Below, in pieces: positions 1 through 9,007 of a DNA stretch of 50,368 bases (its first letter is position 1; every line of letters begins with the position of its first letter). Made by a program: the position numbers and the translations under genes. Below the pieces are notes generated by a model, which did no database searches, was not told the DNA's origin, and was given only the letters and a program-made list of their open reading frames with translations. The stretch comes from an uncultured Gammaproteobacteria bacterium (lineage in GTDB: Bacteria > Patescibacteriota > Patescibacteriia > UBA1558 > GWA2-36-10). The stretch is taken from contig CAZHLU010000001.1 in NCBI GenBank assembly GCA_964533435.1, positions 1-50,368 on the forward strand. Reading direction: 5' to 3'.

Positions 1-55
1 CCGGTTAATATTTTGTTTTTAGGCATGTTTGTTATTTAGTATTTTTATTTATTTC

Positions 56-188
56 ACCTAACAGATGAGCGTATGTGAAGATGCTTTCGCGGTGACCGTG
101 ATGTAATTTTAACATCACGGGTACAAGAAGGCAATTTACAGAAAACCAGTTCTTTTAAGATGGTTTTCTCGCATGCGTGGTGTTGCGT
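56..188. repeat. attC-like imperfect palindrome A
   Basis: Outer boxes ACCTAAC (56-62) and GTTGCGT (182-188) fit RYYYAAC/GTTRRRY. After a short unpaired spacer there is an 8-bp inner stem 70-77/170-177 with two G-T wobbles on the + strand. Internal hairpins at 95-104/112-122 and 141-148/161-168. Shares the left motif TAACAG-N3-5-AGCGTAT and right motif GGTGTTG with the other copies. Confidence 0.6.
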
Positions 189-226
189 GATGTTGTGCTT
201 CCCCTTACTTTAGGGGATTTTTGGTA

Positions 227-255
227 TTGACAAAATAGTTAAAATATGATATTAT
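227..255 (+). promoter_or_regulatory. sigma70-type promoter of G+C-rich module 1
   Basis: TTGACA (227-232), 17-nt spacer, TATTAT (250-255), TG at 247-248. AAAGGA SD-like element before the ATG at 301. Confidence 0.6.
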
Positions 256-300
256 CATATTGCCATAATGGTGTGGCGAGTACACTGAAAGGATTGGGCC

Positions 301-792
301 ATGTTGTGCATAGGACTATTCGGCACTTGCGGCAAGAGCAAGTGGCGCGCTCCCTTCATACAGCGTTACCAGTCGGAAGACATCGCCTTCTTCAACCCCC
401 AGGTCGATGACTGGAAGCCCGAATGTGCCGTCAAGGAGGCCAAGCACCTCGCCAACGACACGGTGATTCTCTTCCCCATCACCAGCGAGACCTACGCTAC
501 GGGTTCCCTGGCCGAGACTGGTTTCAGCATCCTCAATGCGATCCGTCTGGACGATCGGCGCGACTTCGTCATCCTGATCGAGCAGAATCTTGACGAAGAA
601 CTGGTCGACGAGACGGCGCGCAAGGAGAGTCTCCGGGCTCGCGCACTGGTCAAGGAGCATCTCAAGAAGCTCCGTCTGTCCAACCTATACGTCGTCGAGT
701 GCCTCGAGGAGATGCTCGAGGTCAGTATCACGCTCTACCGAGCGGCCGAGATGCGCGAACCGTTGCGCAAGTTCAATCCGCACGCCGAGTAG
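301..792 (+). CDS. nucleoside 2-deoxyribosyltransferase-like protein (G+C-rich cassette ORF)
   Basis: 163-aa ORF. IGLFGTCGKSKW...FNPQ...D...LFPI...TGSLAETGFS pattern resembles the Nuc_deoxyrib_tr / Nuc_deoxyri_tr2 fold families (from memory). G+C clearly above the flanks. Has its own promoter and terminator. Confidence 0.6.
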   Translation: MLCIGLFGTCGKSKWRAPFIQRYQSEDIAFFNPQVDDWKPECAVKEAKHLANDTVILFPITSETYATGSLAETGFSILNAIRLDDRRDFVILIEQNLDEELVDETARKESLRARALVKEHLKKLRLSNLYVVECLEEMLEVSITLYRAAEMREPLRKFNPHAE

Positions 793-828
793 TCGGCGCC
801 AGACCTGAGCAAGTCTCAAGAACTGCTT

Positions 829-862
829 GCCCGCCGCATCACGCGACGGGCTTTTCTTTTTT
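829..862 (+). terminator. rho-independent terminator of module 1
   Basis: GCCCG-c-CGC / GCG-a-CGGGC stem (829-851) followed by a T-run (852-862). The loop carries CATCACGCGAC, complementary to 182-192. Confidence 0.6.
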
Positions 863-932
863 CTCAAAAAATTACAAAACAAAAAACAATTTCTAAAAGA
901 TTGTTTATTTAATGAATAGAAAATTCGATTTT

Positions 933-1006
933 ATATAACAGCCCAGCGTATCTGAAATCCCGGGCGACCATTAACTTAATAGGCGAGGGATTTGGGCAAG
1001 CGGACT
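933..1006. repeat. attC-like element B (short/truncated copy)
   Basis: Left end ATATAACAGCCCAGCGTATCTGAAATCCC is near-identical to the left end of element D. 7-bp stem 955-961/987-993. No GGTGTTG right end. Confidence 0.45.
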
Positions 1007-1009
1007 AAA

Positions 1010-1339
1010 TTATTTTAATACAATGATAGAGATTCTCCTAATAATTGTCACTGCTGCACCCCAAGCCATTGGCGCCCATAATGGTAATCCAAAAAATGTT
1101 GGATTGGTATATTGCCAAGCGCCTTGGTATATCGTCAAGCTCTCTCCTATTGGTCCAAGTATAAAAGCAGTAAAATAATAGGACACATCTTCTTTATCGT
1201 GCCATTTTAAAAATATAAGAACTGTGATTACTATAAAAGCTATTGTTAACCAAGTATTATTATGGTAAAGGTAGGTGATAGCCACTACACAAACTGCAAA
1301 TAGTATAACTGCTAATAATAATTCTTTTATTTTATTCAT
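1010..1339 (-). CDS. small integral membrane protein, unknown function
   Basis: 109-aa ORF with 3-4 hydrophobic helices and AT-rich native-like composition. No family recognised. Confidence 0.55.
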   Translation of the reverse strand: MNKIKELLLAVILFAVCVVAITYLYHNNTWLTIAFIVITVLIFLKWHDKEDVSYYFTAFILGPIGESLTIYQGAWQYTNPTFFGLPLWAPMAWGAAVTIIRRISIIVLK

Positions 1340-1424
1340 AACTGTATTATGGAATATTTTTATTTATTCCGGACCTGTCCGCCTTTGGCGTAAACCAAAT
1401 ACGCGGTGCGAGATGTTTATAAAA

Positions 1425-1712
1425 TTATTGTTTAATTGGCTCGCACCATCCGAAGGAACTTGCGCACTCCAGGCCATTTCCTTGAAATCCATCGGGGCAG
1501 CCATCATCAGGAATAAGTTTATAGTTTCCTCGTTTCATTCTTTCTACTGAGTTTATACAACAGTCGGTCTTTTTTTCACATTGATCAGCTAATTTTTGAT
1601 AGTAATCAATAGTGATTAATTTTGCATCTTGATTATTTGAGTTAAAATAGGCGATTAATCCTATTAGTAGAATAACTGTAATTATTCCAGTTGTTAATTT
1701 TATTTTTTTCAT
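1425..1712 (-). CDS. small secreted/anchored Cys-rich protein
   Basis: 95-aa ORF. N-terminal hydrophobic signal/anchor (KLTTGIITVILLIGLIAYF) and 7 Cys in the C-terminal half. Confidence 0.5.
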   Translation of the reverse strand: MKKIKLTTGIITVILLIGLIAYFNSNNQDAKLITIDYYQKLADQCEKKTDCCINSVERMKRGNYKLIPDDGCPDGFQGNGLECASSFGWCEPIKQ

Positions 1713-1741
1713 ATGGTATTTTAATAGTTTTAATAAATTTT

Positions 1742-1950
1742 GTCTAACAGGCCAGCGTATGCTACGTTACGAGCGAGCTTTGCGGTAAAATATTTGCGGA
1801 GCAAACCGCAAAGGCGAACGAGTAATGTAGGTCTTAGCTTACACCTATCATAGGTTAAAATTAAAAGTGTCTAAGCTAATTTAAGCACTTTTAACTATAA
1901 ATTTCAAATGTAGCATTGGTGTAAGCTAAGTCGCATACGCGGTGTTGTGG
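1742..1950. repeat. attC-like imperfect palindrome C
   Basis: GTCTAAC (1742-1748) / GTTGTGG (1944-1950). Perfect 8-bp inner stem GCGTATGC/GCATACGC (1755-1762/1933-1940). Internal hairpins at 1778-1785/1806-1813 and a 15-bp stem at 1831-1845/1918-1932. Confidence 0.6.
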
Positions 1951-1968
1951 GATGTTTTGGCTTATTAC

Positions 1969-1997
1969 TTGACAAATATCTTATTATATATTATATT
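1969..1997 (+). promoter_or_regulatory. sigma70-type promoter of G+C-rich module 2
   Basis: TTGACA (1969-1974), 17 nt, TATATT (1992-1997). AAGGAGG lies 6 nt before the ATG at 2040. Confidence 0.6.
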
Positions 1998-2039
1998 AGC
2001 GATGGCAATACCGCCAAAAACTCTTTAAGGAGGTAGCCA

Positions 2040-2225
2040 ATGCTAATAGTCTTTTATGTGAAGTTTTCCGACATCGATCGCCTGCGAAAAGGTGAGGCGG
2101 TCCCTGCGATGGAAAGTCAAACAAACGATTTCTATCGCATAGAGGCCGAAGTCGAAGAAGTGAAGATCTACCAAGATCCCAACGTCAGCTCGCGTCGGTT
2201 GGTGAAGAAGCTCCATCAACGCTAG
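2040..2225 (+). CDS. hypothetical 61-aa protein (G+C-rich cassette ORF)
   Basis: ORF directly preceded by a strong SD (AAGGAGG) and a consensus promoter, and followed by a hairpin terminator. No family recognised. Confidence 0.5.
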   Translation: MLIVFYVKFSDIDRLRKGEAVPAMESQTNDFYRIEAEVEEVKIYQDPNVSSRRLVKKLHQR

Positions 2226-2264
2226 TCCGACGAGTGCGGTCGCTGACTGACAGCTCCCCACAAC

Positions 2265-2311
2265 ACCGCCTTATCGAAAGCCGCACGGCTTCGGTCGGGC
2301 GGTTTTCATTT
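2265..2311 (+). terminator. hairpin terminator of module 2 (possibly also a mini attC-like site)
   Basis: ACCGCC...GGCGGT long hairpin (2265-2303) followed by TTTTCATTTT. Immediately preceded by CCCACAACACCG (2257-2268). Confidence 0.5.
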
Positions 2312-2332
2312 TATATGCCTGCCCAAACCAAA

Positions 2333-2468
2333 ATTTAACAGGACAGCGTATCTGAAGTTCCGAAGCGAGTGGCGTGGTAAAATTGCGCGGCTTGCCAGCC
2401 GTAACTTTAGCGAAGGTTGGAGCGCACCACGCAAACGAGCGAGGGATGTAGAGGAGTGAGCGTTAAAG
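2333..2468. repeat. attC-like element D (left end plus conserved internal hairpin)
   Basis: ATTTAAC (2333-2339), then AGGACAGCGTATCTG. Stem 2372-2378/2426-2432 flanked by AGCGAG / GGTAAAAT / AACGAG...GATGTAG blocks shared with element C. TTTAAC/GTTAAA (2334-2339/2462-2467) are complementary. Confidence 0.55.
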
Positions 2469-2486
2469 AATAAAATTATTTAAAAA

Positions 2487-2990
2487 TTAAAGTTTTTTTA
2501 TTCTTTTTAATATAAACCAAGAAAAATGATTGCCATATCTTTGATGTAATGTTTTTAATTTCCAGTCATTACCAGTTATTATTTTTCTACAATATTTACT
2601 GCCACACTCACATTTTAGCTTATAGGGGTAAGTAGTGATAGTGGCATAATCAACAGTAATTTCCTCACCCTTTTTAATATTTTTTAATGCCACAAAAGTT
2701 ATTTCTCCATCTGGTCCAGCGTTTGGTTGGCAAGAGTGGTTAAAACTAACAACTAAGTTTTTGATTTCATCTTTTCTTATTGGCGCAAGAAAGAATTTAT
2801 CAGAAATTTGTACCTCAAAATCTCCGACTTCTTTGTGACAACGCATTGCTTCTTTAAAATTTACAATATGCCCCATTTTTATAAAGACCACCTCACCTTT
2901 TTTAATATTAGTTTTAGCAAATAATCCTTTTCCGCCGATTTTGCTTGTTTTAACTATTGTCTTTGGTGAGCGGTAACATTTAATTTTCAT
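2487..2990 (-). CDS. SET-domain protein (putative lysine methyltransferase)
   Basis: 167 aa. Has FNHSCQPN, EEITVDY and a post-SET CxCxxxxC (CECGSKYC), the classic SET signatures. Confidence 0.8.
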   Translation of the reverse strand: MKIKCYRSPKTIVKTSKIGGKGLFAKTNIKKGEVVFIKMGHIVNFKEAMRCHKEVGDFEVQISDKFFLAPIRKDEIKNLVVSFNHSCQPNAGPDGEITFVALKNIKKGEEITVDYATITTYPYKLKCECGSKYCRKIITGNDWKLKTLHQRYGNHFSWFILKRIKKL

Positions 2991-3014
2991 ATATTTTTAA
3001 ATAATTTTATTCTA

Positions 3015-3055
3015 GCTCGCTCCTCGGATATCCGGTGTTGGGCGAAACGTGGGTT
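3015..3055. repeat. attC-like right end (GGATATCC-GGT-GTTGGGC) plus left arm of the module 3 inverted repeat
   Basis: GCTCGCTCCTC (3015-3025) is inverted relative to GAGGAGTGAGC (2451-2461). GATATCC (3027-3033) can pair with GCGTATC (2346-2352). GTTGGGC (3037-3043) fits GTTRRRY. Positions 3035-3055 are complementary to 3428-3448. Confidence 0.5.
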
Positions 3056-3094
3056 AAATTTTTTATTTTATTAAAATATTAGTTTTTATAGTTA

Positions 3095-3123
3095 TTGACA
3101 GGTATTGTTATGTGTTGTATTAT
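3095..3123 (+). promoter_or_regulatory. sigma70-type promoter of G+C-rich module 3
   Basis: TTGACA (3095-3100), 17 nt, TATTAT (3118-3123). AAGGAGG precedes the ATG at 3154. Confidence 0.6.
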
Positions 3124-3153
3124 ATCTAGTTCCCCAAAAGGAGGTGTGTCAGC

Positions 3154-3351
3154 ATGTCACTGAAACGTCAGTTCATTCGAGGTCAGGTTGTGGTTTTCCT
3201 TCTCAGTCTGCTCGTGTGGTATCTCTTTACTCCGAGGCCGATCTTTTCAACACAAGGGGTGACGATTTTTGTGGTCAGTCTCGCAATTCTGGAGGCGATG
3301 TTTCTCATTCTGCGGGCTGATGAGCAGAGGTCAAGGACACAACCCAAATAG
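3154..3351 (+). CDS. small two-TM membrane protein (G+C-rich cassette ORF)
   Basis: 65 aa with two hydrophobic helices (VVVFLLSLLVWYLF, VTIFVVSLAILEAMFLIL) and a charged tail. Strong SD, own promoter and terminator. Confidence 0.55.
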   Translation: MSLKRQFIRGQVVVFLLSLLVWYLFTPRPIFSTQGVTIFVVSLAILEAMFLILRADEQRSRTQPK

Positions 3352-3376
3352 CATCTTCACGATGCACGATTCTCTG

Positions 3377-3415
3377 AAGGCGGTGCTGGTTAGTTCCAGT
3401 GTCGCCTTTTCTATT
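3377..3415 (+). terminator. rho-independent terminator of module 3
   Basis: AAGGCGGTGCTGG / CCAGTGTCGCCTT stem (3377-3408) followed by TTTTCTATTT. Confidence 0.6.
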
Positions 3416-3439
3416 TGTTTAAAAATGAACCCACGTTTC

Positions 3440-3493
3440 GCCTAACACTGTGTTGACGCACCTGTTGACATCATAGCCAAAATTAGCTAAAAA
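3440..3493. promoter_or_regulatory. candidate attI-like junction and recombinase promoter
   Basis: GCCTAAC (3440-3446; GTTAGGC on the minus strand), then two direct TGTTGAC repeats (3451-3457, 3463-3469). The second repeat overlaps TTGACA (3465-3470), followed by 17 nt and TAAAAA (3488-3493), upstream of the ATG at 3524. Confidence 0.4.
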
Positions 3494-3523
3494 GTAAATA
3501 ATAAACATTAATCACAAACTATT

Positions 3524-4390
3524 ATGAAAAGCGATTTTAAGGCCTTAAGAAAGCCTCAGTTTTTGGTCAATAACCATCCTTTAGACAGTCTAGCTCAAGA
3601 GCTTATAATTAGGGGATTTTCTCGGCGGACTATCCAGAGCTATTTATCTCACAATCAGCGATTTTTGGACTTTAGTGGCAAATCAGCCAGAGCCGTCGAT
3701 AGTCAGGATGTCAAAAATTATTTGCTTTATCTTAAGAGTCAAAATTATACCAACACCTCTCTCAATCAAGTTATTTCAGCTCTTAAGTTTTATTACGGAC
3801 AGATTCTAAAAAGGAAGCTGTTTTTTAGTATTCGGCGGCCTAAGAAAGAAAAGTTTTTACCAACTATTTTGACAAAATCTGAAATTATAAAAATAATAAA
3901 TTGTTCACATAACCTAAAACACAAATTACTTTTGTCTTTAATGTATGGTTCGGGCCTAAGAGTGTCAGAAGTGATTAAAATAAAAATAAATCATTTGGAT
4001 TTAGGTTCTAAAAGCTTATTAGTCAAAGATGCTAAAGGGCAAAAAGATCGTTTTACTTTATTAAGTGCTATTAGTATCAAATTATTAAATCTTTATTTAC
4101 CAAAATTGTCGAGTGAGCAAAAATATTTATTTTCTGGGCAAAATGGTATGTCTCATCTTAGTCAACGTAGCGCACAAAAAATATTTGAAATTGCTTTGCA
4201 AGAATCAAGTATAAAAAAAGATGCTACCTGCCATAGTTTGCGCCATAGTTTTGCTACTCACTTATTGGAGAGTGGAGTTGATATTCGTTATATCCAAAAA
4301 TTATTAGGCCACCAAAATATCAAAACTACAGAAATTTATACGCATGTAGCTAGAAGTTTTTTTAATAATATCAAAAGCCCACTAGACTAA
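3524..4390 (+). CDS. tyrosine recombinase, IntI/Xer-related (integron-integrase-like but without the IntI-specific insertion)
   Basis: 288 aa. Catalytic signature GLRVSE, KGQKDR, HSLRHSFATHLL, LLGHQN, EIYTHV. ALKFYYGQIL and the C-terminal IKSPLD resemble IntI1 ALLFFYGKVL and VRSPLD (from memory). The segment between DRFTLL and KYLF is short. Confidence 0.85.
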   Translation: MKSDFKALRKPQFLVNNHPLDSLAQELIIRGFSRRTIQSYLSHNQRFLDFSGKSARAVDSQDVKNYLLYLKSQNYTNTSLNQVISALKFYYGQILKRKLFFSIRRPKKEKFLPTILTKSEIIKIINCSHNLKHKLLLSLMYGSGLRVSEVIKIKINHLDLGSKSLLVKDAKGQKDRFTLLSAISIKLLNLYLPKLSSEQKYLFSGQNGMSHLSQRSAQKIFEIALQESSIKKDATCHSLRHSFATHLLESGVDIRYIQKLLGHQNIKTTEIYTHVARSFFNNIKSPLD

Positions 4391-4403
4391 AAAACAGTCC
4401 TTT

Positions 4404-4805: not shown

Positions 4806-6006
4806 ATTTTCTTTTACCAGCTTGAATTACATCACCTGATTTTAGATTTAAATCTTGATCCCAATTCTCTACCTTGATTTGATTAAGTTTTAAGCCACCG
4901 CCTTCAATTAAACGGCGAGCTTCGGATTTGGAGTTTACTAATTTTATTTCCATTAACAAATCAACGGGATTAATTTTATTTTTGCTAATCGTAAACTCCG
5001 GCATATCGTCTGGATTTTCTTTTTTAGCAAAGACTTTGTCAAAATTTTCTTGGGCTAATTTTGCGTCTTTTTCAGAGTGGTACATTTTGACAATTTCATA
5101 AGCCAAGCGAACTTTTAGGTCGCGGGGATTGGTGCCAGCTTTCATTTGGGCTTCTAAGTCTTTTATTTCGGCTAGACTTAAATAAGTGCAGTCAATAAAG
5201 CATTGAATAATAGCTTCATCTGGTAAAGCCATAGTTTTACCAAACATATCAGTAGGATTTTCATCTAAACCAATACCAGTACCCAAACTTTTGCTCATTA
5301 ATTTTTCGCCAGTTACGGGATTTTCCAAGAGAGTAGTAGTGACCACAATCTTCTCACGATTTTGGTAAATTTTGGCTAAAGTACGACCAGCTAACATGTT
5401 AAAAGTTTGGTCAGTGCCACCAATTTCAACATCAGCTTTTAAAGCAACCGAGTCATAGCCTTGCATTAGTGGATAAAAAAATTCATGAACATATAAAGGT
5501 TTTTGTTCTTTTAGTCTTTTTTCAAAATTATCACGCTCTAACATTCTTTGGACAGTAAAGTGCGAAGCTAAATCAACCAAGTCAGCAAAATTTAATTTTT
5601 TTAGCCACTGGGAATTAAATTTAAATTCAATTGGATTTTTTTTGTCAGAAAAATTTAAAATTTTGCCAATTTGTTTTTTAAAATGTTTTAGATTTTCTTG
5701 TACTTGTTTTTCACTTAAACGTTGTCGAGCTGAGTTTTTGTCACTAGGATCGCCAATCATAGCAGTAAAATCGCCTATTAAAACAATGATTTTATGTCCT
5801 AAATCGTGCAGTCTTTTTAGGATAATATAGTTGGTAGCATGTCCCAAGTGAGCATAAGTAGCCGTAGGGTCAATACCCATATAAATTCGAAGTTGTTTAC
5901 CAGAATTTAAAAGTTTTTCCAAGGACTCTTTATTTGGATAAATGGTATCAATTGACCTAGTTAACAATTCTTGAATTTTGGCTTGATCTGTGTTAATTTT
6001 AGACAT
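4789..6006 (-). CDS. tyrS: tyrosine--tRNA ligase
   Basis: 405 aa. HLGH (HIGH motif), KLMSKSLG (KMSKS motif) and a C-terminal S4-like domain. Confidence 0.9.
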   Translation of the reverse strand: MSKINTDQAKIQELLTRSIDTIYPNKESLEKLLNSGKQLRIYMGIDPTATYAHLGHATNYIILKRLHDLGHKIIVLIGDFTAMIGDPSDKNSARQRLSEKQVQENLKHFKKQIGKILNFSDKKNPIEFKFNSQWLKKLNFADLVDLASHFTVQRMLERDNFEKRLKEQKPLYVHEFFYPLMQGYDSVALKADVEIGGTDQTFNMLAGRTLAKIYQNREKIVVTTTLLENPVTGEKLMSKSLGTGIGLDENPTDMFGKTMALPDEAIIQCFIDCTYLSLAEIKDLEAQMKAGTNPRDLKVRLAYEIVKMYHSEKDAKLAQENFDKVFAKKENPDDMPEFTISKNKINPVDLLMEIKLVNSKSEARRLIEGGGLKLNQIKVENWDQDLNLKSGDVIQAGKRKFAKIK

Positions 6007-6097
6007 ACTCTTTACAAAAATTTAAAATTTAAGCTTATTAATAGATATTCAAATTATAGCTTATTTTTGCTATAATTCAAATACTATATATATTTAC

Positions 6098-9007
6098 ATG
6101 CCAATACCTCAACTTAAATCAATGCGAGACAATAATGAATCAGGATCTAGCTTTAGTTCCCGCCCTTTGGGCCAGGGTAAAAAGAGTAGGTTTTTAAAAC
6201 CAAGACTATTTTTTGCCCAAAGGCCAAAAAATAGCAAACCTAAAAAAGGTCGCTTATTTAAGCGTTTGTTGCCAACTTTTTTATATTTATGTTTGATTGG
6301 TGGCATTTTTTTAATCGGGCTGATTGCTTATTATTCTAGTGGTTTACCTGAACCAGGAAAAATTATGGATCGTTCGGTGCCATTAAGCACCAAGATTTAT
6401 GATAGCAAGGGTGAGACTATATTATATGAAGTCCACGGCTCAGAGCAACGTACTTTGATCGATATTAATACCTTGCCTAAGTATGTTATTAATGCCACCA
6501 TTGCTGTAGAAGATAAAGATTTTTATAATCACTCCGGAATTTCCATTCGGGGTATTATCAGAGGTGTTTTTAAACAATTGTTAATGGGAGAAAGAGTCCA
6601 AGGTGGATCTACACTTACTCAACAGTTTGTTAAAAATGCGATCTTAACAGATGAACGCCGTGTATCTCGAAAAATAAAAGAATGGGTTTTGTCTTATCGC
6701 ATTGAAAAAAAATATAGTAAGCAAGAAATTTTAGGATTTTATTTTAATGAAATACCTTATGGTAGTTCCGCTTATGGTGTTGAATCAGCAGCTCATTATT
6801 ATTTTGATAAAGCCGCCAAAGATCTTACTTTAGCTCAAGCTACAATTTTAGCGGCTTTACCACAAGCACCTAGTTATTATTCACCTTATGGTAGTCATAA
6901 GGACGCTTTGATTGGTAGACAACGCTTGGTTTTAAAATTAATGGTTGAGCAGGGCTATATTACTCAAGAGGAAGCAGATCAAGCTAAGCAGGAAGAATTA
7001 ACTTTTAAAAAACGAGCTGAAAATATCAAGGCCCCGCATTTTGTGATGTATGTTAAAGAATTATTAGAACAAGAATACGGAGTTTTAAATGTTGAACAAG
7101 GTGGTTGGAAAATTATTACTTCCTTAGATTGGGACTTGCAGCAGCAAGCTGAAAAAGCCATACTCGAACAAGTAGAAAAAAATAAAGAAAAGTATGACGC
7201 CGGAAATGCCGCTCTAGTTGCTATTGATGTAAATACCGGTCAAGTTAAGGCCATGGTTGGCTCTAAGGATTATTTTGATGATGATATTGATGGTCAGGTA
7301 AATGTAGCTGTGGCTCCTCGTCAGCCTGGTAGTTCTCTAAAGCCATTTGTGTATTTAACAGCTTTCACTAGGGGTTTTCGTCCTGATACTATTTTGTTTG
7401 ATTTAAAAACTAAGTTTGGTATTAAATCGGACGGCACGCCTTATGAGCCACAAAACTATGACGGCGCTGAACATGGTCCAGTGACTATGCGTCAGGCTCT
7501 GGCTGGCTCTTTAAATATTCCAGCTGTTAAAACTTTGTATTTAGCTGGTCCTAATAATGTTTTAAAAACTGTATCCGATTTTGGCTATACTACTTTTAAA
7601 GCAGATAATCCTTGCGGTTTGTCTTTAGTTTTAGGTTGTGCTGAAGTTAAATTATTAGAGCATGCTAATGCTTATGCAGCCTTGGCTCGCGAAGGTGTTT
7701 ATCAGGATAGCATCTCTATCTTAAAAGTAGAGGATGCCAAAGGTAAGGTAATTAAAGAAAATAATGATGTAAAAGGTCGTCGTGTAATGGACAAGAAATA
7801 TGTTCATATGCTTACTGACGTTATGTCTGATAATTCAGCACGTGCTTATATTTTTGGAGAAAATAATTATTTGACTTTAGGTGATAGACCCGTAGCTGCT
7901 AAAACTGGTACTACTAATGATTATCATGATGCTTGGACAATGGGTTTTACGCCTGATTTGGCAGTTGGTGTCTGGGTTGGTAATAGTAATAATAAGGCTA
8001 TGAAAAAAGGAGCCGATGGTTCAGTGGTAGCAGCTCCAATTTGGAATAAGTTTATGCGGGAAGCAACTGCTAAAATGCCAGTAAGTGATTTTAAAAAAGA
8101 AGCACTTGAATCTTGTGATAAGCCAATGGTGTGCGGTACCTTAGGCAAAGAAACCATTGTTAAAGTTAATAAACAAAATGGTAAATTAGCAAGTGAATAT
8201 ACGCCTTATACCTTGATTGAAGAACGAAAATATAATGAAGTGCATAATATTTTACATTATGTAAATACCAATGATCCAATGGGTGCGCCACTTGATAATC
8301 CAAGTTCTGATCCGCAGTATGCTTCTTGGGAAGCACCAGTAAAAGTTTGGGCAGAAAAAGAAGGTTATATTAATAGTCAGCCACCAACGGAAGTTGATGA
8401 TGGTTTTACAGCAGCTAATCAGCCTAGCATTTCTTGGCTCAGTCCTAGTGCTGGCCAGGCTTTAAATCAGGTGCCAATTAATTTAAGTGTTCAAGCTAGT
8501 GGCCCTAATGGCATTGCAAGAGTAGAATATTTTATTGATCAGCAAAAAATTGGAGAGAGTTTTGCAAGTCCTTATAGTTTATCTTGGACACCGAATTCTT
8601 TTATTGCCAATGGTCAACATAATTTACGAGCCATTGCTTTTGATAGTAGTGAGAATTTTAAAGAAACAATTATTAATATTGATTTGCAGATTGCTAGTAA
8701 TAATCGTTCTTATGATTTGAAATTTGTAGAACCAGTAAGTCAAAGTACAATAGAATCAAGCTCCTTGCCAGTCAATATTAAATTATCTTTAGATAGACCA
8801 AGTGCAGTTAAAAAAATTGATTTCTACTATCAGTTTAATGGTGGTTCATCACAATGGTTTAACTATTTGGAAAATCCTAGTGATACTAATCTAGTGGTTT
8901 CCTGGGGCCAGGGTTTAGCCAAAGGCAATTATCAGCTATACATGATAGTGCTTGATAGTTCTGGTCAAACAGCTACTTCACCAGTTTTAAATCTAACGAT
9001 TCAATAA
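6098..9007 (+). CDS. penicillin-binding protein 1A (bifunctional transglycosylase/transpeptidase) with C-terminal Ig-like extension
   Basis: 969 aa. EDKDFYNHSGI and RKIKE (GT51 motifs), SSLKP (SxxK) and KTGTT. N-terminal TM anchor. Confidence 0.9.
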   Translation: MPIPQLKSMRDNNESGSSFSSRPLGQGKKSRFLKPRLFFAQRPKNSKPKKGRLFKRLLPTFLYLCLIGGIFLIGLIAYYSSGLPEPGKIMDRSVPLSTKIYDSKGETILYEVHGSEQRTLIDINTLPKYVINATIAVEDKDFYNHSGISIRGIIRGVFKQLLMGERVQGGSTLTQQFVKNAILTDERRVSRKIKEWVLSYRIEKKYSKQEILGFYFNEIPYGSSAYGVESAAHYYFDKAAKDLTLAQATILAALPQAPSYYSPYGSHKDALIGRQRLVLKLMVEQGYITQEEADQAKQEELTFKKRAENIKAPHFVMYVKELLEQEYGVLNVEQGGWKIITSLDWDLQQQAEKAILEQVEKNKEKYDAGNAALVAIDVNTGQVKAMVGSKDYFDDDIDGQVNVAVAPRQPGSSLKPFVYLTAFTRGFRPDTILFDLKTKFGIKSDGTPYEPQNYDGAEHGPVTMRQALAGSLNIPAVKTLYLAGPNNVLKTVSDFGYTTFKADNPCGLSLVLGCAEVKLLEHANAYAALAREGVYQDSISILKVEDAKGKVIKENNDVKGRRVMDKKYVHMLTDVMSDNSARAYIFGENNYLTLGDRPVAAKTGTTNDYHDAWTMGFTPDLAVGVWVGNSNNKAMKKGADGSVVAAPIWNKFMREATAKMPVSDFKKEALESCDKPMVCGTLGKETIVKVNKQNGKLASEYTPYTLIEERKYNEVHNILHYVNTNDPMGAPLDNPSSDPQYASWEAPVKVWAEKEGYINSQPPTEVDDGFTAANQPSISWLSPSAGQALNQVPINLSVQASGPNGIARVEYFIDQQKIGESFASPYSLSWTPNSFIANGQHNLRAIAFDSSENFKETIINIDLQIASNNRSYDLKFVEPVSQSTIESSSLPVNIKLSLDRPSAVKKIDFYYQFNGGSSQWFNYLENPSDTNLVVSWGQGLAKGNYQLYMIVLDSSGQTATSPVLNLTIQ

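Follow-up and report, generated by a model that had tools for sequence, protein, structure and literature searches.

What brings three G+C-rich genes, each with its own predicted promoter and terminator and each bracketed by an inverted repeat, into an AT-rich array of small genes in a Patescibacteria (Candidate Phyla Radiation, CPR) genome, and why do they face against it? The window analysed here is a complete contig of 50,368 nucleotides (nt; CAZHLU010000001.1, G+C 35%) whose proteins are found in metagenome-assembled genomes of Patescibacteria and which carries housekeeping genes beyond position 4400, tyrS, PBP1A, uvrB and truB among them. Its array, at 1-3448, consists of seven short open reading frames (ORFs) with palindromes between them, and ends 75 nt before a tyrosine recombinase gene at 3524-4390. 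The explanation that we consider probable, if by no means secure, is that positions 1-3448 are an integron-type cassette array on a Patescibacteria chromosome, with the Xer/IntI-like recombinase at 3524-4390. Each G+C-rich ORF would be the cargo of one cassette, encoded against the direction of the array, and the bracketing repeats would be an extended complementarity of R' and R'' boxes: the bases with which a cassette begins, on the R' side, would be complementary to the inverse core, R'', of the attC-like site belonging to that cassette.

Composition and expression signals of the reversed modules

The three modules were singled out in a preliminary description of the locus as islands of G+C-rich coding sequence, and their parts are given below with the length of each product in amino acids (aa) and its G+C at third codon positions (GC3).

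227-255, plus strand: module-1 promoter, TTGACA-17-TATTAT, 11/12, with TG extension; conserved with its gene in the related locus L046
301-792, plus strand: ORF1, 163 aa; PF15891 nucleoside 2-deoxyribosyltransferase (NDT)-like, TIR/flavodoxin-like fold; G+C 58.5%, GC3 0.80
829-863, plus strand: module-1 terminator, hairpin 829-851 (GCCCG...CGGGC) and T-run, with the right repeat arm 837-847 (CATCACGCGAC) in the loop
1969-1997, plus strand: module-2 promoter, TTGACA-17-TATATT, 11/12
2040-2225, plus strand: ORF2, 61 aa; a real but rare family; G+C 48.4%, GC3 0.60
~2265-2302, plus strand: module-2 terminator, hairpin CACCGCC...GGGCGG and TTTT
3095-3123, plus strand: module-3 promoter, TTGACA-17-TATTAT, 11/12
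3154-3351, plus strand: ORF3, 65 aa with two hydrophobic helices; no homologue found; G+C 48.5%, GC3 0.55
3376-3409, plus strand: module-3 terminator, 14-pair hairpin followed by a T-run

That these ORFs stand out from their AT-rich context holds under codon-position statistics. Against 38 host genes, in which GC3 is 0.242±0.038 with a maximum of 0.40, ORF1, ORF2 and ORF3 differ significantly, with z-scores of 14.6, 9.3 and 8.0, and no 492-nt window across 3500-50368 rises above 45% G+C. The earlier estimate of 55-60% G+C, made by eye, fits ORF1 and is too high for ORF2 and ORF3. All three show coding-type position periodicity, the non-coding 5' parts of their modules are AT-rich (26-37% G+C), and GC3 is host-like (0.23-0.27) in the AT-rich array ORFs and the recombinase. 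Values of 0.55-0.80 against 0.24 mark the three genes as recent imports from a G+C-richer gene pool. Structured non-coding RNA was considered for the G+C-rich islands and is ruled out by ribosome-binding sites, ATG starts, codon periodicity and protein homologues, which indicate coding sequence; a search of Rfam yielded nothing above E = 0.08 for 1-3600 and no match for five related loci.

The expression signals proved to be as first described, with a near-consensus promoter, a strong ribosome-binding site and a hairpin terminator in every module. Within 1-3600 just three sites match the sigma-70 consensus at 11/12, all on the plus strand and each directly upstream of ORF1, ORF2 or ORF3, and the AT-rich ORFs, all on the minus strand, have no promoter match better than 10/12. 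The ribosome-binding sites (GAAAGGA in module 1, AAGGAGG in modules 2 and 3) lie 7-9 nt ahead of the ATG; the terminator hairpins of modules 1 and 2 have large loops and were missed by a simple hairpin scan. These features support the modules as complete antisense transcription units, predicted as such, of clearly foreign composition. A near-consensus promoter, strong ribosome-binding site and own terminator would make each a self-sufficient transcription unit, so that expression would be expected at any array position, independent of an array promoter, and the antisense orientation and terminators would insulate the G+C-rich cassettes from array transcription. A terminator-like hairpin at 200-217 (TCCCCTTACTTTAGGGGA, then TTTTT), directly upstream of the module-1 promoter, may insulate module 1 from read-through; the GGGGAATTTTTGG motif of this region is conserved in the leaders of two related arrays, L051 and L052. 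ORF2 and ORF3 have no match in Pfam, NCBIfam or PADLOC (defence, toxin-antitoxin, known domains), and the modules do not have the make-up of toxin-antitoxin cassettes, being single ORFs, with ORF2 and ORF3 of no recognised family.

Insertion site, attC-like sites and repeats

Two features at the right end of the array bear on whether it is an integron.

3443-3500, no strand assigned: attI-like insertion region, crossover 3445|3446 (TAA|CACTGTGTTGACG); L004, L035 and L036-L041, variant loci, diverge exactly here
3524-4390, plus strand: tyrosine recombinase, 288 aa, Xer/IntI-like, without ~40 aa of the IntI-specific domain

The junctions of the array recur at 99.9-100% identity in 16 contigs from at least nine samples (ENA, Logan, JGI), and other contigs of the same population extend its left end by one further small ORF (OmdA, minus strand), followed by a GalT/glycosyltransferase block. 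At the right end, five different sequences lie to the left of CACTGTGTTGACG among contigs with an identical or >99% identical recombinase. In the window attI lies right beside module 3; L004 and L035 have module 3 and then, instead of CACTGTGTTGACG, a complete palindrome and another minus-strand cassette, with divergence right after GCCTAACA; one left partner is a cassette of at least 384 aa that begins with AT rather than TT (L038, L041). The variant regions are L004 4826-5137, L035 405-727 and, in L038-L041, the sequence upstream of the recombinase. There is, then, a site of cassette insertion beside the recombinase gene, as expected of attI, and the difference in cassette content between strains at this site is direct evidence, at the level of sequence, for an active array.

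Population divergence at CACTGTGTTGACG and GCCTAACA places the crossover at TAA|C (3445|3446), which in minus-strand reading is G|TTAGGC, the position at which classical integrons recombine. The array should therefore have the minus strand as its sense strand. The opposite polarity, with plus-strand cassettes starting at GGTG|TTG, was rejected for attI: CACTGTG is present in all variants, and they diverge to the left of it. The recombinase would insert cassettes at TAA|C, G|TT being the point in the boxes where it moves them. For Pc the minus strand offers a candidate at 3498-3470 that matches at just 9/12, a candidate recombinase promoter lies at the TTGACA of 3464-3469, and no dif-like 11-6-11 Xer site was recognised at attI by eye.

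The recombinase passes the NCBIfam profile for XerA/integron integrases (NF040815; 227, cutoff 220) and not that for IntI (TIGR02249; 210 bits, cutoff 265), which it matches in two stretches. Its alignment to VchIntIA (2A3V) splits, with query 181-210 set against chain 170-240 and ~40 aa missing, and it aligns end to end with the archaeal XerA 4A8E; in overall similarity the two are about equal (141 bits for VchIntIA, 149 for XerA). The additional domain around patch III that is specific to IntI integrases is lacking.

The sites and repeats to the left of attI are the following.

55-185, no strand: attC-like palindrome A, the module-1 cassette site; left CCTAA|CAG-ATGA-GCGTATG, two inner hairpins, right GCATGCG-TG-GTG|TTG
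182-192, plus strand: module-1 repeat, left arm; R' box G|TTGCGTGATG of attC A
837-847, plus strand: module-1 repeat, right arm; CATCACGCGAC
849-944, no strand: trailer, AT-rich and conserved; T-run, second hairpin, ATAA|CAG box
932-1420, no strand: attC-like site B/C, with ORF109 (1010-1339, minus strand) enclosed between its two halves
1425-1712, minus strand: ORF95, an AT-rich cassette ORF of 95 aa in the presumed sense orientation of the array; GC3 0.25
1741-1951, no strand: attC-like palindrome D; left TCTAA|CAG-GCCA-GCGTATGC, right GCATACGC-GG-TG|TTGTGGG; includes the module-2 left arm, 1940-1951
2257-2268 (region 2257-2306), plus strand: module-2 repeat, right arm; CCCACAACACCG, continuing into the terminator hairpin
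2333-3040, no strand: attC-like site E/F, enclosing a SET-domain gene (2487-2990, minus strand); its right box GGATATCC-GG-TG|TTGGGCG starts the module-3 repeat
3035-3062, plus strand: module-3 repeat, left arm; 28 nt, 89% complementary to 3421-3448
3421-3448, plus strand: module-3 repeat, right arm; its end GCCTAA|C is the cassette's first bases on the minus strand (G|TTAGGCGAAACGTGGGTT)

Conserved CTG|TTA boxes lie at 61|62, 938|939, 1747|1748 and 2338|2339, and crossovers there would divide the array into four minus-strand cassettes, 3445-2339, 2338-1748, 1747-939 and 938-62. All of the attC-like sites fit one template. A and D have YTAAC and GTTG outer boxes, GCGTATGC and GCATACGC inner boxes, two inner hairpins and asymmetric spacers of 5 and 2 nt. 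As single strands both fold far more stably than shuffled sequence (A, z = -4.2; D, -39.5 kcal/mol, z = -6.1); site F taken by itself as a minimal attC was rejected, as it cannot fold. Sites and units also move between arrays: window 52-185 is 87% identical to 3891-4024 of the related array L047 among different neighbours, and the ORF109 unit (985-1371) recurs in L047, again with other neighbours. Site C, at 1366-1420 between ORF109 and ORF95, is a degenerate right half-site with ATACGC-GG-TGCGAG instead of TGTTG, and its decay has probably locked the two genes into one cassette.

The bracketing repeats were found where the preliminary description had placed them, and pairs as good are rare in dinucleotide-shuffled sequence. 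The module-1 pair (182-192/837-847; 11 nt, one mismatch) was equalled in 179/20000 shuffles, the module-2 pair (1940-1951/2257-2268; 12/12) in 0/20000 and the module-3 pair (3035-3055/3428-3448) in 0/5000; the last extends to 28 nt at 89% (3035-3062/3421-3448). All left arms start in GGTG|TTG, a box that relatives keep as GGTG|TTGNGNGATGT over at least 15 nt, and the right arms complement it at its variable positions as well (GCGT in module 1, GTGG in module 2, GGGC/AGGC in module 3). This covariation bears out the proposal that the repeats extend the integron rule by which the start of a cassette complements its own R''. Complementarity of first bases to inverse core is found in module 3 (28 nt), the SET unit (30 nt), units of L051, L052 and L047 and the PP2C cassette of L052, and in this family of sites it runs 11-28 nt into the cassette, with 20-25 nt of perfect pairing in relatives. 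Such long terminal complementarity presumably serves to pair the two half-sites with each other in a substrate that has folded or synapsed.

Long repeats are not a hallmark of the G+C-rich modules. The AT-rich SET gene has its own pair (2458-2487/2993-3022, 30 nt at 87%), and so has the AT-rich PP2C cassette of L052 (~20 nt, read by eye). The flanks of SET (2442-2488 and 2987-3045) surround a GrpB gene in L047 (1253-1299/1807-1864), with homology stopping at the start and stop codons, so that the flanks belong to the site and not to the gene; the pair looks like a precise gene swap inside conserved flanks. Nor do the arms behave as the ends of a miniature inverted-repeat or other terminal-inverted-repeat transposon, since they differ from unit to unit and no direct duplication flanking them was seen by eye.

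Several observations weigh against reading the locus as an integron array. Measured from the cassette boundary predicted by the CTG|TTA boxes, the right arm is internal by 92 nt in module 1 and by 73 nt in module 2, and the canonical rule fits these two only if 849-938 and 2265-2338 are remnants of older cassettes, which for 849-944 is the simplest reading. Sites B, E and F are composite, and the sites as a group are conserved in sequence and not in structure alone, unlike classical attC sites. No excised circle was seen, nor any variant of the array without module 1 or module 2. The recombinase lacks the IntI-specific domain, which is held to define integron integrases and to be necessary for integron recombination (PMC9668308), and its chemistry may differ from that of integrons, for example by Xer-like action on double-stranded DNA. 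Finally, scaffolds with swapped ORFs and genes inside attC sites, both described below, are not explained by textbook cassette exchange.

Related arrays and alternative readings

A metagenome scan with the recombinase found related arrays that hold G+C-rich islands beside enzymes 75-86% identical to that of the window. Across six arrays of this recombinase clade, the window, L047, L050, L051 and L052 among them, GC3 exceeds 0.4 in 11/12 plus-strand and 0/18 minus-strand ORFs (Fisher 2e-7, Mann-Whitney 5e-6). In this count the one plus-strand ORF scored as AT-rich is the reverse-transcriptase region of L047, taken in the wrong frame and with 24 internal stops, and the G+C-rich placement of L051 6254-6688, one frame off (correct 6252-6686), is provisional. 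The G+C-rich array proteins belong to no Pfam family except for ORF1, and the AT-rich ones include GrpB, SET, N6-methylase, PP2C, bAvd and deoxyribosyltransferase. Each G+C-rich unit in the relatives has its own 20-25-nt repeat (78-100%), and attC A, the ORF109 unit, the SET flanks and the 849-944 trailer all recur there with other neighbours.

These arrays also suggest a different account, on which the gene units, G+C-rich and AT-rich alike, form a second mobile layer, each unit being enclosed in a hairpin and closed by its own perfect inverted repeat. Units would enter at a fixed point of the attC hairpin, replacing its second stem-loop, or beside an R box, and the repeats would be the ends of the units and not ordinary R'/R'' boxes. 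The G+C-rich units of L050, L052, L051 and L047 do lie within one attC-like site, between ATTTGGGTG or ATTTKCAG and CCAGATAYSC-GG-TGTTG, each with a repeat of 20-25 nt (96-100%). The window's SET and ORF109 conform to this template as well, at a position where 'empty' sites carry a small hairpin (26 nt in sites A), and the shared flanks of SET and GrpB are in keeping with such units. Set against this, the three modules of the window lie between sites and not inside them, there is no target-site duplication, no element occurs in two copies, no empty and filled versions of one site were found in one population, and the sole population junction that could be mapped, at attI, is at an R box. We hold this account to be unlikely on balance. 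Should the repeats be no more than long R boxes, the array would represent an ordinary, though still interesting, form of integron anatomy.

Two side observations concern L047. At 4838-7290 a complete 2.6-kb diversity-generating retroelement lies inside one attC-like site with a 25-nt inverted repeat; it has a G+C-rich target gene with a variable repeat (~5390-5520), a template repeat (~5790-5930) with adenine-specific differences, bAvd (5954-6217, minus strand) and a reverse transcriptase (~6340-7290) with an LGxxxSQ motif. At 2445-2600 and 3735-3900 there are two copies of a ~160-nt G+C-rich element that has no ORF, lies between CGCCTAAC and TTATCAG boxes and resembles a gene-less cassette; it has no match in Rfam.

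A further alternative, to which we give little credence, is that conserved AT-rich expression scaffolds are loaded with foreign ORFs, so that the G+C-rich coding sequence is a graft into host-style signals. The scaffold would have a 5' part made up of R' box, leader, promoter and 5' untranslated region and a 3' part consisting of the T-run and the trailer as far as the R'' box, and ORFs could be exchanged by homologous exchange between scaffolds, by recombination at secondary sites or through reverse-transcribed mRNA. What recommends the idea is that modules of L051 and L052 have in common ~165 nt of 5' scaffold (~80%) and ~85 nt of 3' scaffold (~97%) around unrelated ORFs, the unrelated segment running from near the ribosome-binding site to the terminator hairpin. 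The same 3' scaffold, a trailer of ~90 nt conserved at 85-97%, follows three unrelated G+C-rich ORFs (window 849-944, L052 752-843, L051 6725-6815), and in the window its homology begins right beside the right arm of module 1 (847|848; from 849). SET and GrpB are exchanged at their start and stop codons, and one related array, L047, has a reverse transcriptase. That enzyme, however, belongs to the diversity-generating retroelement, with its own template and variable repeats; ORF1 brings its own promoter and 5' untranslated region into L046, an ORF2 homologue has its own signals outside any array, and neither an intermediate nor a mechanism has been shown. The original picture of host-style signals around a foreign ORF accordingly keeps part of its ground, in that AT-rich scaffolds of relatives do hold unrelated ORFs, and loses part, in that the signals of ORF1 and of the ORF2 family go with the gene. 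In L051 and L052 the trailer also repeats, in inverted form, the leader that precedes the promoter.

Inverted repeats of 11-30 nt around promoter-bearing segments beside a tyrosine recombinase, and weak profile matches of that recombinase to tyrosine-type invertases (E 1e-15 to 1e-13, far below cutoff), might suggest that the repeats are DNA invertase sites and the modules phase-variable segments flipped by the neighbouring enzyme. This is very improbable: every segment has the same orientation in all 16 population contigs, promoter, ORF and terminator all lie inside the repeats, so that flipping would leave expression unswitched, arm sequences differ from module to module, and the variation observed is insertion or replacement at attI. 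It is scarcely credible that the G+C-rich stretches are assembly chimeras or spurious ORFs with coincidental repeats, for although ORF3 has no homologue and the module-1 repeat alone is just moderately improbable (179/20000 shuffles), independent assemblies from at least nine samples agree on the junctions, which we take to refute a chimera, homologues exist for ORF1 (~950) and ORF2 (2), all three ORFs have codon-position G+C periodicity, and the same pattern appears again in five other arrays of this recombinase clade.

We therefore return to the integron-type array as our preferred reading. The preliminary description is confirmed in what it observed and partly supported in its interpretation. 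The locus is best described as an integron-like array whose recombinase is not an IntI, whose cassette ends are complementary over very long stretches, and which has a separate class of foreign, reversed and (as predicted) self-expressed cassettes. A wider hypothesis, which we offer tentatively and as a whole, is that Patescibacteria possess an integron-like system of a separate kind, run by a clade of Xer-like recombinases that lack the IntI domain and comprising two classes of cassette. The first would be AT-rich, promoterless, in sense orientation and of known families; the second would be G+C-rich, mostly orphan and always antisense, with its own predicted promoter and terminator. Units would be closed by unit-specific 20-30-nt repeats and could sit in the recombination hairpin, and AT-rich scaffolds would be reloaded with unrelated foreign ORFs. 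If this is true, genome-reduced episymbionts would have a route to capture genes from G+C-richer organisms and express them at once.

Origin of the cargo and comparison with known systems

Where the cargo comes from is clearest for ORF1. Some 950 homologues of it, 70-99% identical, are spread over Patescibacteria; the majority sit outside arrays, and their G+C often exceeds that of the flanking DNA. The preliminary description had named close homologues at non-array loci as evidence against its modules, and in the case of ORF1 it is partly undercut. No recombinase and no attC motif was found at 24 genome loci of such homologues, and at 21 loci outside the window array they have no meaningful flanking repeat, except for the shared attC R box of an array in L043; the ORF1 gene is usually not a cassette. 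It is ~70% identical across class- or phylum-level CPR lineages, the cultured Minisyncoccus archaeiphilus included. This distribution and the higher G+C than flanks suggest repeated horizontal spread of a small TIR/NDT-like enzyme. ORF1 has no sequence match in the PDB, its structure model (pLDDT, a model confidence score, 85) gives weak TIR/flavodoxin-like matches in a fold search (TM score 0.45-0.53), and any function assigned from these is a family-level guess.

In L046, whose product is 89% identical to ORF1 in amino acids, homology sets in at the -35 box, behind a GGTG|TTGG, and ends with the stop codon, so that the promoter of ORF1 evidently travels with its gene. A second G+C-rich ORF with its own ribosome-binding site (773-949) begins there 20 nt past the stop codon of the ORF1 homologue, in place of a terminator, and by this layout the ORF1 module can elsewhere be a putative two-gene operon. 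In L043, which holds an unrelated array, an ORF1 homologue of 81% identity has a promoter of its own and is flanked by attC sites that belong to another family. The attC sites of that array are 110 nt long (GTTCTAAC...GTTAGAAC), and one of them, at 3300-3700, is split between GCTGGCTC and GGCTCCGG by an insertion of ~300 nt with a 76-aa minus-strand ORF.

Word-seeded searches with ORF2 and ORF3 returned self matches only, and ORF3 was searched in this way alone; an exhaustive search with ORF2 found two remote homologues (55% and 38% identity), one of which has a promoter and terminator of its own and lies on a contig of 46% G+C where no attC is present. For the ORF1 and ORF2 families at least, promoter, ORF and terminator move together. 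The donors are G+C-richer organisms and, in the case of ORF1, plausibly other CPR bacteria; the earlier suggestion of a high-GC host of an episymbiont finds no support, ORF2 and ORF3 being near-orphans.

We found no paper on integrons in the CPR. Bacteria of this group have tiny genomes and rely on gene flow, hence the interest of a cassette system among them, and this one appears to be active and driven by a recombinase without a domain thought essential for integron recombination. It also presents a clean and statistically strong split between native-looking cassettes and foreign-looking, reversed ones predicted to express themselves. With its swapped-ORF scaffolds and genes in attC sites the array would be a defined substrate for asking how cassettes arise and are loaded, and what the IntI-specific domain contributes.

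The closest parallel is with sedentary chromosomal integrons such as the Vibrio superintegron with its VCR attC sites. Shared features are a tyrosine recombinase gene beside the insertion site, an array of short ORFs between related imperfect palindromes with AAC...GTT boxes, strain-variable cassette content at the insertion site, and cassette starts complementary to the inverse core of the same cassette. The AT-rich cassettes of the window may also share the promoterless, co-oriented layout of most integron cassettes, a rule that the window's three G+C-rich cassettes break. The differences are a recombinase here without the IntI-specific domain, sites whose sequence is conserved over 130-210 nt and whose R boxes span 15 nt or more, complementarity that runs 11-30 nt into the cassette instead of 6-7 nt, genes that can lie inside a site, ~40% of ORFs in antisense, and a CPR host.

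The pdif (Xer) modules of Acinetobacter plasmids are gene modules bounded by inversely oriented Xer-type sites, and the array resembles them in having gene modules between inversely oriented sites for an Xer-type recombinase. It differs in its long structured palindromes with integron-like boxes, its chromosomal location and its dedicated recombinase, with no 11-6-11 dif-like site seen by eye. Elements that insert into attC sites are known as well, namely IS1111-attC insertion sequences and group IIC-attC introns. Like them, SET, ORF109 and the units of L050, L047, L051 and L052 add DNA in fixed orientation as a second layer inside attC sites; unlike them, they bring neither a transposase nor an intron-type ribozyme or reverse transcriptase, and consist of ordinary genes with unit-specific perfect repeats.

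Archaeal integrons, which are platforms for cross-domain transfer (PMC9668308), are likewise arrays in little-studied lineages with genes of foreign origin. They have a canonical IntI, additional domain included, and one cassette orientation, whereas the recombinase here is without that domain and the genes that look foreign run in reverse, by prediction from promoters of their own. Integron cassettes with internal or antisense promoters are also known, among them toxin-antitoxin cassettes, ereA, cmlA, qnrVC1 and gene-less promoter cassettes, and promoter-bearing cassettes occur in Vibrio superintegrons (PMC11014356). The G+C-rich cassettes share with these a promoter of their own, sometimes opposite to Pc, and position-independent expression, here predicted. 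They differ in being single small genes, mostly orphans and not toxin-antitoxin pairs, each with a terminator, and in their composition, which sets them apart as a class (GC3 0.5-0.84) found in antisense without exception across six arrays.

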